Notes: generated by a model from the letters alone, not told the origin. A DNA stretch of 64,000 nucleotides from a virus (IMGVR_UViG_3300032293_001631:31477-95476), one strand, 5' to 3'; positions 37,969-64,000 are shown, counted from the stretch's first letter. A program made the numbers and translations.

Positions 37969-38577
37969 ATGTCCAGAATTAAGAATTTTAGCGATTTTTG
38001 TAGATTAAATGAAGCTTCTGGTGATGATCTTTTCTTTAGAAGACATCTAGGAGACAATGCTTCATCTTATAAAGATAGAGCTAAGAACCATTACGAACTT
38101 GGTGATAATCCTACTGTTTTATCAAAGGTTAGCAACTTCTTTCAGAAGATGGAAGATAGAATAAATAGAGCTGCAGATATCGGAAAAATGCAGGTCAGAC
38201 AGAACAGGGCAACAAGAACACACGGAGGTCCTGATACTGGATTTGAAATGTTATTCGGAACCCTTTCAGTTGTTCCTAGTGTTCTTAAAAGAGTTTTTGC
38301 TCCAACTAAATATGAGTTTACAAAGAAAGCTCCTAGTGAAGACACTGTTGATGTTGAATTTATTAGACACACTAACGAGGACTTTACCAAAAACGAACTT
38401 CCTAATATTAAAACCGAAGAACAATTAGCAGATCACATAGGTGATATGTATAGCAGAGGAGAAGTACAAATGGGACAGGTACCTGTTCTAGACGATATTG
38501 CTAAGAATAGAGTTAATCTTTATTATCAGCACCAGGCAAATCCTAATCAGCCTATATTCCAACCAAATAATTTATAA
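37969..38577 (+). CDS. Hypothetical protein with CTS-like N-terminus (putative internal head protein)
   Basis: MSRIKNFSDFCRLNE|A. Confidence 0.7.
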   Translation: MSRIKNFSDFCRLNEASGDDLFFRRHLGDNASSYKDRAKNHYELGDNPTVLSKVSNFFQKMEDRINRAADIGKMQVRQNRATRTHGGPDTGFEMLFGTLSVVPSVLKRVFAPTKYEFTKKAPSEDTVDVEFIRHTNEDFTKNELPNIKTEEQLADHIGDMYSRGEVQMGQVPVLDDIAKNRVNLYYQHQANPNQPIFQPNNL

Positions 38578-38579
38578 AA

Positions 38580-39380
38580 ATGAAAAAATTTTCTTCCGTA
38601 GTAGAAAAAAAGAAACAAGAACTAAATGAAGCGAAACTAGTAAGTGAAAGAAACCTCTATCTAGAATTTGCTAAGAAATATCACAAAAAGCATGGTGTTT
38701 CTGGACCTTTCGATAAAAAATTCCAAGGGGATAAGAAAAAGCAAGAGGCTTATATGGAAGAGCTTGCTAAAGCTTGGGATCAGCACAAGAAAGATAAAGG
38801 AATTAAAAATAAGCCAGCTAACCATAAGTTCGATTTTGCAAAAAAGAGAATGAACGAATCTAAAGCATTAGATATGGCAAGATCTATGGTTGGTGACGGC
38901 GGAGATCCTAATTATCATTTTGTAACTATGTGTGACGACTTTTATTTTGAAAAGGGAGAAGACATGATTAGATACAGCAAAGATATGATGGCATCTCCAA
39001 TAAAAATAAAAACTACTCCGGACTTAGGAGCATACACATTCGGACCATTTGCTAACTTAGAGGAATCTAAAAATTTTGCTGCAAGTATTGAGTTGGATGA
39101 GATAAATGGACCTAGAATGGTTATGATCGAGGACAGAAAAACGGGAGAGGTATATTCCAAGTATCTAACTTGTAAAATGCAACCAGTTTGGAATGAAATC
39201 GAGGAGGAAGAAGAAATTGAAGAGGAAGAAGAGTACGAAGATCCTAATGCTGAGTACACCTACAAAGACGAAGAAGAGGATGACGCTTCGGAAGTAGAGG
39301 ACGAAGATGAAGACGAGGATGAGGATGAAGACGAGGAATATACTGCTACTATCCACCAAGAGGAGGACGAAGAAGAATAA
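38580..39380 (+). CDS. Hypothetical putative core/internal head protein with highly acidic tail
   Basis: MKKFSSVVE...LNE|A; YLEFAKKYHKKHGVSGP helical module; about 60-aa Glu/Asp tail. Confidence 0.7.
   Translation: MKKFSSVVEKKKQELNEAKLVSERNLYLEFAKKYHKKHGVSGPFDKKFQGDKKKQEAYMEELAKAWDQHKKDKGIKNKPANHKFDFAKKRMNESKALDMARSMVGDGGDPNYHFVTMCDDFYFEKGEDMIRYSKDMMASPIKIKTTPDLGAYTFGPFANLEESKNFAASIELDEINGPRMVMIEDRKTGEVYSKYLTCKMQPVWNEIEEEEEIEEEEEYEDPNAEYTYKDEEEDDASEVEDEDEDEDEDEDEEYTATIHQEEDEEE
39195..39377 (+). repeat. GAR/GAY codon-rich low-complexity tract encoding the poly-Glu/Asp tail
   Basis: gaggaggaagaagaaattgaagaggaagaa...gacgaagatgaagacgaggatgaggatgaagac. Confidence 0.7.
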
Positions 39381-39385
39381 AATAT

Positions 39386-39829
39386 ATGTTTAATTCCGGT
39401 GGAAAACAAGCTCTATATCCCGTATTACAACACTATACAGGATTTAAGATATCCTCCATTTTTTTAGATGGGGAATATCTTTCCTTTGTTACTTTCTTGG
39501 GTGAAAGAGGAATTTTGAACGAGGATCCATCGGGGGATTGGAATATAAAAATCGAGGACAAAATAGTATACAGAATTGAGAAAGATATCTTTAATGTATT
39601 AGTAAATCCCGATAAAAGAAATACCCTGGAAGACTACATAGAAATATTAAATAGACTTTGTAGGAAACCAAATGTGAGCCATAGGTCTAAAATACTCTTG
39701 AGTAATATAATTAAATTCTTGGAAGAGTTTATATTAAATTCTGATTTTGTACCACAAAAGAAAATAAGAATTGGTTCTTTCGAGATTTTTAATATACATG
39801 GTAGAAAAATTATTAATAGCTTAAACTAA
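39386..39829 (+). CDS. Hypothetical protein
   Basis: 147-aa ORF; stop overlaps the next start (TAATG). Confidence 0.65.
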   Translation: MFNSGGKQALYPVLQHYTGFKISSIFLDGEYLSFVTFLGERGILNEDPSGDWNIKIEDKIVYRIEKDIFNVLVNPDKRNTLEDYIEILNRLCRKPNVSHRSKILLSNIIKFLEEFILNSDFVPQKKIRIGSFEIFNIHGRKIINSLN

Positions 39830-61638: not shown

Positions 61639-62674
61639 TTACTACCAAATTCTAGGCGTAAATGAAAATGCCGACCAGGAATCTATAAAAAAATCTTACA
61701 GATCCCTGGCAAAAAAATACCATCCTGATAAAAACAAGGAACCTGGAGCTGAGGAGAAATTTAAAAAAATAACTGAAGCTTATGAAAATCTTGGGGATCC
61801 TGCCAAGAGAAAAGAATATGACAGGAAAAGATCCTTCCAGGATGCTTTTGCTGGATTTGGATTTGGTAATAATTACAATAATAACAGTTACCGGGATCCT
61901 TTTTTCGACCATTACAATCCATCTGCACCGCAAGATCCTAAAGGATCGCATCTCAATATAACACTTAAAGTGAGTTTAAGTGATATCCTAAATGGTGTGG
62001 AAAAGAGAATAAAACTCAGAAGGGATAAGAAGTGTAAATCTTGTGAAGCTACTGGTGCTGAGGGTGGAGTTTCTTTCCAAACCTGTGGAACTTGTAACGG
62101 TATGGGACATATTGCTGTAAATAGAATGAATGGATTTGTCCAGATAAATTCGGTTACAGTTTGTAATGCCTGTAGCGGAACCGGAAGATCTATATTGGAA
62201 TATTGTTTAGACTGCTTAGGTAAGGGTGTTTTACCTAATGAAGACATTATAGACATAAACATACCAGCCGGTGCTTCTGATGGTATGCAATTTGTTGTCT
62301 CTAACAAAGGTAACGAGGGGAAAGGTAATGGACTTCCGGGAGATCTCTATGTTAAAATAAGAGAGGTGCCTGATGATAATTTTGTAAGAAAGGGAACAGA
62401 TTTAATAGCAGCAAAACAGATAACGTTTATCGAAGCTGTTCTAGGAACTAATATAGACGTACAAATGCCTGATGGTGAGAGATTAAAGGCAATTGTATCA
62501 CCAGGAACTGTACCCGGTACGGTTCTTAAGTTTTCCCAAAGAGGAATACCAAATCTTGGATACGGTGGAAGAGGGGATTTTTTAGTAGAGCTAAACATTA
62601 AAATACCAACTGATCTTAGTAAAGATGAGATAGCTTTTATTAAGGAGCTTGGTGAATATGATATTTTTAAATAA
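61631..62674 (+). CDS. dnaJ: DnaJ chaperone (J domain, Zn fingers, C-terminal domain)
   Basis: YYQILGV, KYHPDKN, four CxxCxGxG repeats, GDLYV; TTG start. Confidence 0.93.
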
Positions 62675-62679
62675 TAATT

Positions 62680-63003
62680 ATGGAGGTCTTTGTATTTTAT
62701 ATTCTTTCTATATGGGGACTTACTCATATATTAGTATCCTCTAAGATATTTGAAAATTTTAGAAATTGGACAATTATAAAATTGCCTTTTATTGGCGATA
62801 TGCTTAGCTGTTACCAGTGCACTTCTTTTTGGGTTTCCTTATCACTTTATCCAATGTTTAATGATTTAAAATTCGGAGGGATATGTTTAGAGTTTTATGG
62901 ATTATCATTTCCTCTGGACGCTATTCTTTGTTCTTTTATAGGATCTGGATTAATATCATTTATATCTGTGATAATGTCTTTCTTGATAAAAAAATCTAGG
63001 TAA
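62680..63003 (+). CDS. DUF1360-like membrane protein
   Basis: TM helices flanking MLSCYQCTSFWVS (CxxC). Confidence 0.7.
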   Translation: MEVFVFYILSIWGLTHILVSSKIFENFRNWTIIKLPFIGDMLSCYQCTSFWVSLSLYPMFNDLKFGGICLEFYGLSFPLDAILCSFIGSGLISFISVIMSFLIKKSR

Positions 63004-63023
63004 CACAAATTGATATATAGAGT

Positions 63024-64000
63024 ATGGAAAAGAATATTAAAATACTCTCGTTTGATCAATTTATGAACGAGCAAACTGAGGAATCAGGAGCTACCGGATC
63101 AACTGCAGCTACTCCAGGTGAAAATTTAGCTAAGCCAGAGACTGATAAGGAAGCAAGATCTAGAATTGCTCTAGGTATAGTTCAGAATCTATTTGGTGAT
63201 GTTAAAGGATTAACTGGCGGAGTTGATAGCATTATAGATCAGACTAATAAAGAGGTTAAGGAATCACTACCATATAAAGGATGTGGAGCATCCGAGGGAT
63301 ATAAAATGGATAAGGGTGATCTTTCAGTATTAACCATTAAGATATTACTTGAATACTTACACGAAAAACAAATAGGAAACTACGAGAAATCTCTAAAAGA
63401 GCTAAACGAGAAGAGGTCTATAATAGTTGGTGTAAGAAATAAATTAGCAATAAAGAAAGAAGCAATAAATCAGGATAGATTCTGCGACGCTCTTTATTTT
63501 ATTCCAGGAAATGCCAGCGATGGTACAGATGCTGGAACAGGATCTACCGGATCTACTGGACCTACTGGCTCTACAGGACCTGCTGAAACAGTTAATAAAG
63601 AACCTAAAAAGGAGGATGTATTTTCTAGAATTAAGAGCAAAAAAGGCGAAAAAAAGAATGAATCATATTCTATAGTGGAATCGATTGATTATAGAATAAA
63701 TGAATTGGAATATCTTTCTGAGTCTGGCTTATGGAGTTTCGGTAAGTTCGAAGAAATGGGAAGAGAGAGGAATTTCCTTATACAACATAAAGAACTTATA
63801 GAAGAGGGTGAAATATCTGAATCAAGATTTATAGAACTATATGAAGATTTTCTAGGTATAGGAGCAGGACTTACGTGGATAGGAAAAAAATTAGGAATAG
63901 TTAAGGATGATAAGCCCAAGGGAGGCGGAGTGATAGCTTCTGCTCAAAATATAGTAAAAGCTGCTAATGAACAACCAGCATTACCGACTGGTCCAACTGG
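63024..64000 (+). CDS. Partial hypothetical protein with CTS-like N-terminus and G-x-T linkers (runs off the window; not in the ORF track)
   Basis: Open frame from ATG 63024, MEKNIKILSFDQFMNE|Q...GTGSTGSTGPTGSTGP...; GATATATA at 63012-63019. Confidence 0.8.
   Translation, partial: MEKNIKILSFDQFMNEQTEESGATGSTAATPGENLAKPETDKEARSRIALGIVQNLFGDVKGLTGGVDSIIDQTNKEVKESLPYKGCGASEGYKMDKGDLSVLTIKILLEYLHEKQIGNYEKSLKELNEKRSIIVGVRNKLAIKKEAINQDRFCDALYFIPGNASDGTDAGTGSTGSTGPTGSTGPAETVNKEPKKEDVFSRIKSKKGEKKNESYSIVESIDYRINELEYLSESGLWSFGKFEEMGRERNFLIQHKELIEEGEISESRFIELYEDFLGIGAGLTWIGKKLGIVKDDKPKGGGVIASAQNIVKAANEQPALPTGPT

Follow-up and report, generated by a model that had tools for sequence, protein, structure and literature searches.

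The 64,000-nucleotide stretch of viral DNA analysed here (the window; bases 31477-95476 of the 95,476-bp IMG/VR contig IMGVR_UViG_3300032293_001631) encodes 13 proteins that begin with versions of one short peptide tag. The tag is modular, is conserved at the amino-acid level and matches the functional anatomy of the capsid targeting sequence (CTS) of phage T4. It co-occurs with T4-type head machinery and with the promoter motif of head genes. We favour the reading that the tag is a T4-type CTS that is removed after its glutamate (probability about 0.7). Judging from the sequences, the phage probably packs a varied kit of proteins into its capsid, and we infer delivery of this kit into the host from T4 and from the cargo of relatives.

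The tag consensus is a basic residue followed by [IL], x, x, [FY], x, x, F, [VIL], x, E. If helical, it would put hydrophobic residues along one face. The strict core was defined as [ILVM]-x-x-[FYL]-x-x-F-[VILM]-x-E, with Leu at the aromatic position in one copy. A reading of the sequence alone had assigned a common N-terminal pattern to 13 open reading frames (ORFs). All 13 start where that reading placed them, and all of their tags fall within residues 1-20. Of these, 11 fit the pattern well: seven have the strict core (43742, 45628, 46157, 54923, 56909, 59623 and 63024) and four are spacing variants with the same hydrophobic triad and the Glu moved by -2 to +2 (37969, 41865, 48490 and 49379(-)). 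The other two (38580 and 45350) are weak short forms, M-K-K-[FY]-S-x-[IV]-x-E, that are kept in orthologues and score as nonsignificant with the weight matrix described below. The contig 5' of the window has two further strict tags and one partial tag. The tagged genes, named in the text by the coordinate of the start codon, are listed here with lengths in amino acids (aa).

37969..38577, + strand: tagged gene, 202 aa, no assigned function; tag at residues 1-15, spacing variant, Glu at +8
38580..39380, + strand: weakly tagged gene, 266 aa, in an operon after 37969; short form at residues 1-9; score reached by 421/2,000 shuffles
41865..42722, + strand: tagged DUF2201_N putative metallopeptidase, 285 aa (Pfam 1.6e-14); tag at residues 1-14
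43742..45346, + strand: tagged MoxR-type AAA+ ATPase, 534 aa; strict tag at residues 1-14, AAA domain from residue 165
45350..45622, + strand: weakly tagged gene, 90 aa; short form at residues 1-9; 297/2,000 shuffles
45628..46164, + strand: tagged gene, 178 aa, no assigned function; strict tag at residues 1-13; 7/2,000 shuffles
46157..46468, + strand: tagged gene, 103 aa, basic (isoelectric point, pI, 9.4); strict tag at residues 1-14
48490..49077, + strand: tagged gene, 195 aa, no assigned function; tag at residues 1-12, spacing variant
49074..49379, - strand: tagged gene, 101 aa, GTG start; tag at residues 1-11, spacing variant
54923..55582, + strand: tagged adenylate kinase, 219 aa; strict tag at residues 10-20, complete ADK domain from residue 38
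56909..57394, + strand: tagged gene, 161 aa, no assigned function; strict tag at residues 1-12; 18.2 bits; 0/2,000 shuffles
59623..60363, + strand: tagged gene, 246 aa, basic; strict tag at residues 1-11, then a Pro/Ala/Ser-rich linker; 11.9 bits; 0/2,000 shuffles
63024..64000, + strand: tagged gene truncated by the window end (501 aa in the relative G004); strict tag at residues 1-16, then a Gly/Ser/Thr-rich linker

A regular-expression search gave 8-9 N-terminal matches and 16 internal matches (31,271 residues). A ten-column weight matrix was trained solely on the tag set of LR756500.1, an uncultured phage of 462 kb that is the nearest complete genome. Matches of at least 8 bits occur at 6/1,840 N-terminal and 6/28,186 internal positions, a 15-fold N-terminal enrichment (Fisher p 3.5e-5). 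Shuffling the same residues reaches the observed score in 0-7 of 2,000 trials for six of the seven strict tags in the window and for the two upstream; 63024 has an ORF that runs past the window end and was omitted here and from the comparison of trimmed proteins. The top matrix score of the contig is that of 46157 (23.9 bits; 0/2,000 shuffles), and the shuffle counts for 43742 and 54923 are 3/2,000 and 2/2,000. With the first 22 residues trimmed, the 15 contig proteins compared gave no mutual matches (blastp, E<1e-3). The tagged proteins are thus unrelated, as had been proposed, and paralogy is ruled out as the source of the common tag. Also upheld was the claim that replication enzymes lack it: gp32, helicase, B-family DNA polymerase (PolB), both ribonucleotide reductase (RNR) subunits, topoisomerase, UvdE, dUTPase and DnaJ are all untagged. 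One nucleotide enzyme, the adenylate kinase at 54923, does bear it.

In T4, the CTS is an N-terminal peptide on the internal proteins IPI, IPII and IPIII (and on Alt) that is removed by the prohead protease gp21 (Mullaney and Black 1996, via PMC9026906), and the first ten residues of IPIII are enough for incorporation into the head (PMC9026906). Mutagenesis assigned residues 4 and 7 to targeting and residues 8 and 10 to processing (PMC9026906). IPII and IPIII do begin with MKTYQEFIAE, as the sequence-only reading had stated, and positions 4, 7, 8 and 10 of this peptide are Tyr, Phe, Ile and Glu, equal to the aromatic residue, Phe, aliphatic residue and Glu conserved here. When the LR756500.1 matrix was applied to 269 T4 N-termini, ranks 1-3 went to gp61.1 (17.5 bits), IPII (16.4 bits) and IPIII (16.4 bits). 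The next score is 5.1 bits, and IPI ranks fifth of the 269. Motif-blind clustering of N-termini yields the same four T4 proteins as one group. T4 gp61.1 (NC_000866 18966-19130, - strand) has 54 residues, is encoded next to the primase gene and is a hypothetical protein in the record. CTS-like leaders are also known in T-even relatives (PMC9026906).

The likeness is of a 10-20-residue N-terminal peptide on unrelated proteins, with an aromatic residue, two residues, Phe, an aliphatic residue, one residue and Glu, in a lineage that encodes a Peptidase_S77 (S77) protease and a gp23-type capsid protein. There are differences. One more hydrophobic residue is conserved in the tag here, three positions upstream of the aromatic one and mostly after Lys, Arg or His. 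It occurs on 13 genes in the 64-kb window and on 30-45 proteins per related genome, compared with about four in T4. Enzymes are among the cargo here, which varies in charge instead of being basic throughout; a repetitive scaffold-like tail is joined to the protease, and the system is known from sequence alone.

Relatives retain the tag. In 13 syntenic IMG/VR loci (ATPase identity 50-98%) every orthologue is tagged, including all 13 of 43742, and spacing-variant tags are retained in orthologues at 45-98% identity. The Glu is invariant in both families that were aligned: in the 37969 family Phe10, Asn14 and Glu15 are invariant among ten orthologues, and in the 48490 family (nine orthologues) Glu12 is invariant over a 3-residue indel. 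Orthologues of 49379(-) keep both the GTG start and the tag. In the relative G001 (85% complete; other syntenic relatives include G003 and G004) the tag is present on 30-45 proteins. Alignment of 31 of these shows a consensus confined to the tag, with the tag Glu at least 90% conserved, and 12 G001 proteins have N-termini much like that of 45628. About 26-28 proteins of LR756500.1 start with its own version of the tag. The DUF2201_N orthologue in that genome (200318-201793) is likewise tagged, and each of the two bears the tag dialect of its own genome.

Could the peptide be a by-product of nucleotide selection? In this explanation, A/U-rich first codons of late mRNAs with short leaders favour Lys, Ile, Phe, Asn, Tyr and Glu. 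The tag residues do have A/T-rich codons, and the leaders are predicted to be very short, given that the promoter-like motif described below lies 5-22 nt from the start codon of tagged genes. However, shuffled residues lose the score, tail and fibre genes with the same late motif are untagged, and the same pattern is functional in T4. Synonymous codons at conserved tag positions are used freely, including those ending in G or C (TTT/TTC 19:10, GAA/GAG 22:9, AAT/AAC 12:11), which argues for selection on peptide rather than RNA. We consider a nucleotide-level origin very improbable.

The ADK domain of 54923 begins only at residue 38, past the tag and a linker (Pfam ADK 1.7e-33, profile positions 1-146 of 151), and the modelled fold of 48490 begins near residue 14; the tag is thus a module appended outside the folded domains. 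The AF2 (AlphaFold 2) model of 48490 (pLDDT 82, pTM 0.82) has a beta sheet and then four helices, with residues 1-8 below pLDDT 50 and thus predicted to be disordered. It is without a clear match in the Protein Data Bank (PDB): the best Foldseek hit has E 0.15, and the best VIA hit, with a Z of 4.4, is a weak one to the TriTu Rhs-toxin immunity protein. The model of 37969 is of low confidence (pLDDT 55), too poor for structure search. Pfam and PHROG searches returned no family for most tagged bodies, the identified ones being 41865, 43742 (Pfam AAA_5; PHROG 1297, 4.5e-44) and 54923. There was no Pfam or PHROG match for 56909, and for 59623 there is a weak ParB-like lead from the ESM Atlas. The G004 orthologue of 63024 matches PHROG 3000 (unknown function) and is without a lead in the ESM Atlas; in both G004 and G001 the gene is the first of a series of tagged ones. 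The 41865 protein has a second L-N-E site around residue 28.

Tagged genes are associated with a short motif, [AG]ATATATA. The following copies directly precede tagged genes in the window.

37940..37947, + strand: GATATATA late-promoter-like motif, ends 22 nt 5' of the 37969 ATG
41839..41846, + strand: GATATATA motif, ends 19 nt 5' of the 41865 ATG
43719..43726, + strand: GATATATA motif, ends 16 nt 5' of the 43742 ATG
48478..48485, + strand: AATATATA motif, ends 5 nt 5' of the 48490 ATG
49384..49391, - strand: AATATATA motif, ends 5 nt 5' of the 49379(-) GTG
56884..56891, + strand: GATATATA motif, ends 18 nt 5' of the 56909 ATG
59610..59617, + strand: GATATATA motif, ends 6 nt 5' of the 59623 ATG
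63012..63019, + strand: GATATATA motif, ends 5 nt 5' of the 63024 ATG

The earlier observation of a motif ahead of most tagged genes or operons is therefore borne out: eight tagged genes are preceded directly, and most others follow, within operons, a gene that has the motif. On its own, GATATATA is mildly over-represented (15 observed, 7.9 expected). For [AG]ATATATA, 15 of 27 contig sites end at most 32 nt 5' of a start on the same strand (binomial 1.5e-20). The association of tag and motif was found in three genomes (Fisher p 2.6e-4 for the contig of the window, and 2.7e-4 and 5e-9). In the window the motif is also found ahead of the baseplate operon, the fibre operons, a 774-residue probable structural protein and a GIY-YIG endonuclease, and in G001 and G004 it precedes the protease gene and other head-module genes. 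The GIY-YIG/NUMOD homing-endonuclease gene (35706-36413) lies among replication genes and bears GATATATA.

The tag does not mark late proteins in general, since baseplate, tail and fibre proteins encoded behind [AG]ATATATA are untagged. A different, promoter-like motif, GAAAC-N15-21-TA[TA]A[AT], is found in 32913-57800 of the window ahead of most of the replication genes identified: gp32, Hc1, PolB, nrdA and topoisomerase (32979, 46536, 49432, 52548 and 57807), and 8 of the 27 contig sites of GAAAC-N15-21-TAWAW end at most 60 nt 5' of a start (binomial 7e-7). Given this split between the two motifs, the tagged genes, though scattered among replication genes, appear to be wired to the structural programme. 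No exact TATAAATA (T4 late promoter) was found within 80 nt 5' of T4 ipI, ipII or ipIII, so we draw no promoter parallel with T4.

Since motif and tag are frequently together, a promoter-plus-leader cassette might have been copied ahead of genes by recombination, with no function at the protein level. In distant relatives (L087, L088 and L093) the DUF2201_N and 101-residue families have about 12 N-terminal residues in common beyond the tag, which hints at leader exchange between genes; this longer common stretch, in the families of 41865 and 49379(-), is what a copied cassette could leave. However, tag DNA is not conserved from gene to gene, many tagged genes are within operons and without a motif of their own, and key residues are under purifying selection in orthologues at 45-98% identity. 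There is little to recommend a functionless cassette, and we would be surprised if it accounted for the tag.

Under the CTS reading a head-maturation protease and a T4-type capsid protein are expected partners, and both are encoded in relatives. Neither Peptidase_S77 nor a gp23-type capsid protein was found in the 95-kb contig, which is 33% complete and ends about 13 kb short of the head module. Peptidase_S77 was identified in LR756500.1, G001, G003, G004, Sphingomonas phage PAU and Tenacibaculum phage pT24, with T4 as the positive control. The G004 protein matches head maturation protease PHROG 207 (5e-38). Next to it is a Gp23-family capsid protein, the first ~40 residues of which align with the T4 gp23 propeptide. 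The T4 gp23 cleavage site, Glu65, has no clean alignment with the capsid proteins of relatives; a Leu-Asn-Glu near residue 44 is a candidate only. For Flavobacterium phage MaF61 we found no S77 match in the whole record and no common N-terminal cluster in the first 160 of 168 kb.

The protease ORF is 630-700 residues long (G004 copy at L107:405-2495, with a tail of ~475 residues). In G004 and G001 the tail has about 12-15 tandem 14-residue (42-bp) units, mostly with Leu-Ala-Glu (G004 repeats at L107:1305-1822). The LR756500.1 protease has the same fusion, with degenerate repeat units. This fusion of protease and repeats probably unites the functions of T4 gp21 and gp22, and the Leu-Ala-Glu repeats look as expected for a scaffold that is degraded at aliphatic-x-Glu sites. 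The tag as a copy of the scaffold repeat was considered and rejected, as a matrix of G001 tags gives at least 6 bits to the first repeat unit only. Any likeness of tag and repeat is limited to an aromatic-x-x-aromatic-aliphatic-x-Glu core, and its meaning is speculation. In G001 and G004 the head module has tagged genes on either side.

From these observations a most likely pathway can be proposed. The [AG]ATATATA motifs would serve as promoters from which tagged genes and head genes are transcribed together. As in T4, the tag would bind the scaffolding core of the assembling prohead, and the S77 gp21-type protease, fused to its scaffold-like tail, would cut after the Glu of an aliphatic-x-Glu site. 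The mature proteins might then remain in the head and exit with the DNA, which is the least certain step.

A partner outside the capsid should also be weighed. The tag might dock phage DnaJ/DnaK chaperones or a modifying enzyme, and the phage does encode a DnaJ (61631-62674). Against such docking, the tag agrees with the T4 CTS position by position and co-occurs with the S77 protease in all four tagged genomes searched (LR756500.1, G001, G004 and PAU). As for a radical-SAM enzyme that modifies the tag, there is no Radical_SAM (PF04055) match in the contig, in G001, in G004 or in complete PAU, and in LR756500.1, which has five, all lie at a distance from tagged genes. Docking to a non-capsid partner is, in our view, decidedly unlikely.

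The cargo of relatives gives some indication of what a T4-type CTS would deliver. In G001 a tagged protein of 261 residues has a Tad3 type I Thoeris inhibitor domain (Pfam 4.7e-21, 75 bits), and another has a CHAP domain.

L101:11569-12354 (G001 151569-152354), + strand: tagged Tad3 protein, one of about ten tagged genes that form an island at 144-160 kb
L105:6615-7388 (G001): tagged CHAP-domain protein

Both proteins are plausible as entry-stage cargo. They also bear on the possibility that the tag recruits to the prohead only, so that tagged proteins are core, scaffold or assembly and remodelling factors that are degraded or expelled at maturation, with no delivery. Several tagged G004 proteins are inside the head module, and the MoxR AAA+ ATPase with its metallopeptidase/VWA partner could remodel the core. 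In PAU a comparable leader is on genes at the positions of the T4 core proteins gp67, gp68 and gp22. However, Tad3, the CHAP hydrolase and adenylate kinase are without an evident assembly role, 30-45 tagged proteins per genome are many for scaffold parts, and the T4 precedent is one of delivery. We regard a prohead-only role as unlikely, if worth keeping in mind.

The sequence-only reading had gone as far as to propose that a large, enzymatically diverse cargo is loaded into the head for delivery at infection. The loading part gains support from the matrix that recovers T4 internal proteins, the agreement of the conserved tag positions with the T4 residues found important by mutagenesis, the S77 and gp23 genes in relatives and the motif in common with head genes; delivery would follow by analogy with T4 and from the cargo of relatives.

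Several points weigh against the CTS reading. Two of the 13 instances are weak (38580 and 45350). The tagged adenylate kinase and the MoxR/metallopeptidase pair are non-obvious capsid cargo, neither the kinase nor the MoxR ATPase has an evident task at entry, and the adenylate kinase gene, which comes after nrdA, is without a late motif of its own. The pI of the cargo ranges from 4.4 to 9.7, so it is not uniformly basic, unlike the T4 internal proteins. The putative late-promoter role of [AG]ATATATA is assigned from the genes downstream of the motif. As the contig is without the head module, the protease is predicted from relatives at 53-76% identity. An N-terminal match alone is not proof of packaging, because the best T4 match, gp61.1, is a hypothetical protein. 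For this phage and its close relatives we infer packaging, cleavage after the Glu and injection, all three by analogy.

Other systems share parts of this arrangement. Encapsulin cargo-loading peptides are short common peptides that send unrelated enzymes into an HK97-fold shell. Unlike the tag here, they are C-terminal, bind shell rather than scaffold and are uncleaved, and encapsulins involve neither DNA nor delivery. In the Dar system of phage P1, anti-defence proteins are packed in the head and injected, with loading of DarB and Ulx dependent on DarA and Hdf. That loading uses a hierarchy of partner proteins and not one short tag on many proteins.

By motif-blind clustering we identified 21 proteins of PAU (JQ362498.1) with a common leader, M-K-T-[LI]-x-x-L-[YF]-E, between 9332 and 200549 and densest at 100-113 kb. 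The leader is on genes around the S77 protease, including those at the gp67, gp68 and gp22 positions. As in the lineage studied here, there is an S77 protease in PAU, and also a capsid protein of the gp23 type, which processing shortens from 585 to 520 residues. It differs in that its leader consensus is not the same and ends Leu-Tyr-Glu, most copies are around the head module and the host is a proteobacterium. No published description of the PAU leader was found. The idea could be tested in PAU, which is a cultured Sphingomonas phage.

In phiKZ-like giant phages (SPN3US, 201phi2-1 and phiKZ) the prohead protease clips N-terminal propeptides of many packaged proteins at x-Glu sites, and targeting into the prohead is the role proposed for these propeptides (PMC5694885). 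The cleavage motif there is a small residue, x and Glu. In contrast to the tag, these propeptides are mostly longer than 100 residues and do not form a short tag common to unrelated proteins, and the lineage is unrelated.

The genomic setting agrees with that of a large phage of Bacteroidota. The contig has a CheckV completeness of 33% and a G+C content of 34%. Structural genes, among them those for baseplate and fibre proteins and a gp6-like wedge, fill its left half. From ~33 kb on there are genes for gp32, a helicase, a partial PolB and both RNR subunits, and also for a topoisomerase II subunit, UvdE, dUTPase, an Hc1 histone-like protein and DnaJ. After LR756500.1, the closest genomes are Lak megaphages and other huge phages; MaF61, pT24 and PAU are more distant still. 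No close record was found in the phage collection (megablast, 18 kb). The gene content fits that of moraphages, aquatic giant phages of Bacteroidota (PMC12619734).

Other features are recorded here for completeness. The PolB ORF (49432-50838) has only 468 residues, comprising the exonuclease domain and the start of the polymerase domain. This length is kept, at 468 residues in every relative and 472 in LR756500.1. The remainder of the enzyme was not located within the window, and the DNA polymerase of this lineage may be split into separate parts. Several LR756500.1 genes finish with a common C-terminal motif, N-A-D-[DE]-F-G-F-[LF]-D-N plus stop, and lie directly 5' of tagged genes at 13446, 15898(-), 198746(-), 313364(-) and 323012; this motif was not seen in the contig of the window. 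In G001, a putative portal (863 residues, L094:15653-18244) and a 176-residue head-module protein (L095:4290-4820) have a common N-terminal G-Y-N-P-[IVL]-[FY]-E, which may be a second class of protease-site leader.

The T4 CTS itself is textbook knowledge. We found no published account of a CTS on dozens of proteins per giant phage of Bacteroidota, coupled to a protease-scaffold fusion. The phrase 'capsid targeting' was not found in any of the papers listed on huge phages, jumbo phages or megaphages in the library searched, and the term 'N-terminal' is not in the moraphage paper (PMC12619734).

A more ambitious form of the idea, which we offer tentatively and would not expect to hold in full, is that the ejected proteome of these phages is readable from sequence. 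The products of more than one tenth of the genes (30-45 proteins per genome) would enter the capsid by means of a single ten-residue tag and reach the host already made, together with the DNA. The set would include Tad3, a CHAP wall hydrolase, a MoxR/VWA/metallopeptidase machine and adenylate kinase. The tag would dock on the aromatic-x-x-aromatic-aliphatic-x-Glu repeats of the protease-fused scaffold, with the same enzyme clipping scaffold and cargo at the same motif.

In summary, should the tag act as it does in T4, a list of the proteins that uncultured giant phages package could be drawn up from sequence alone. Tagged proteins would be the first to meet host defences, and new anti-defence proteins could be sought directly among them; a Tad3 Thoeris inhibitor is already among the tagged proteins of a relative. 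The tag would also provide a cleavage rule for the protease and a portable loading tag for engineering Bacteroidota phages. The loading mechanism of T4 would then be old, and greatly scaled up in lineages with large capsids.

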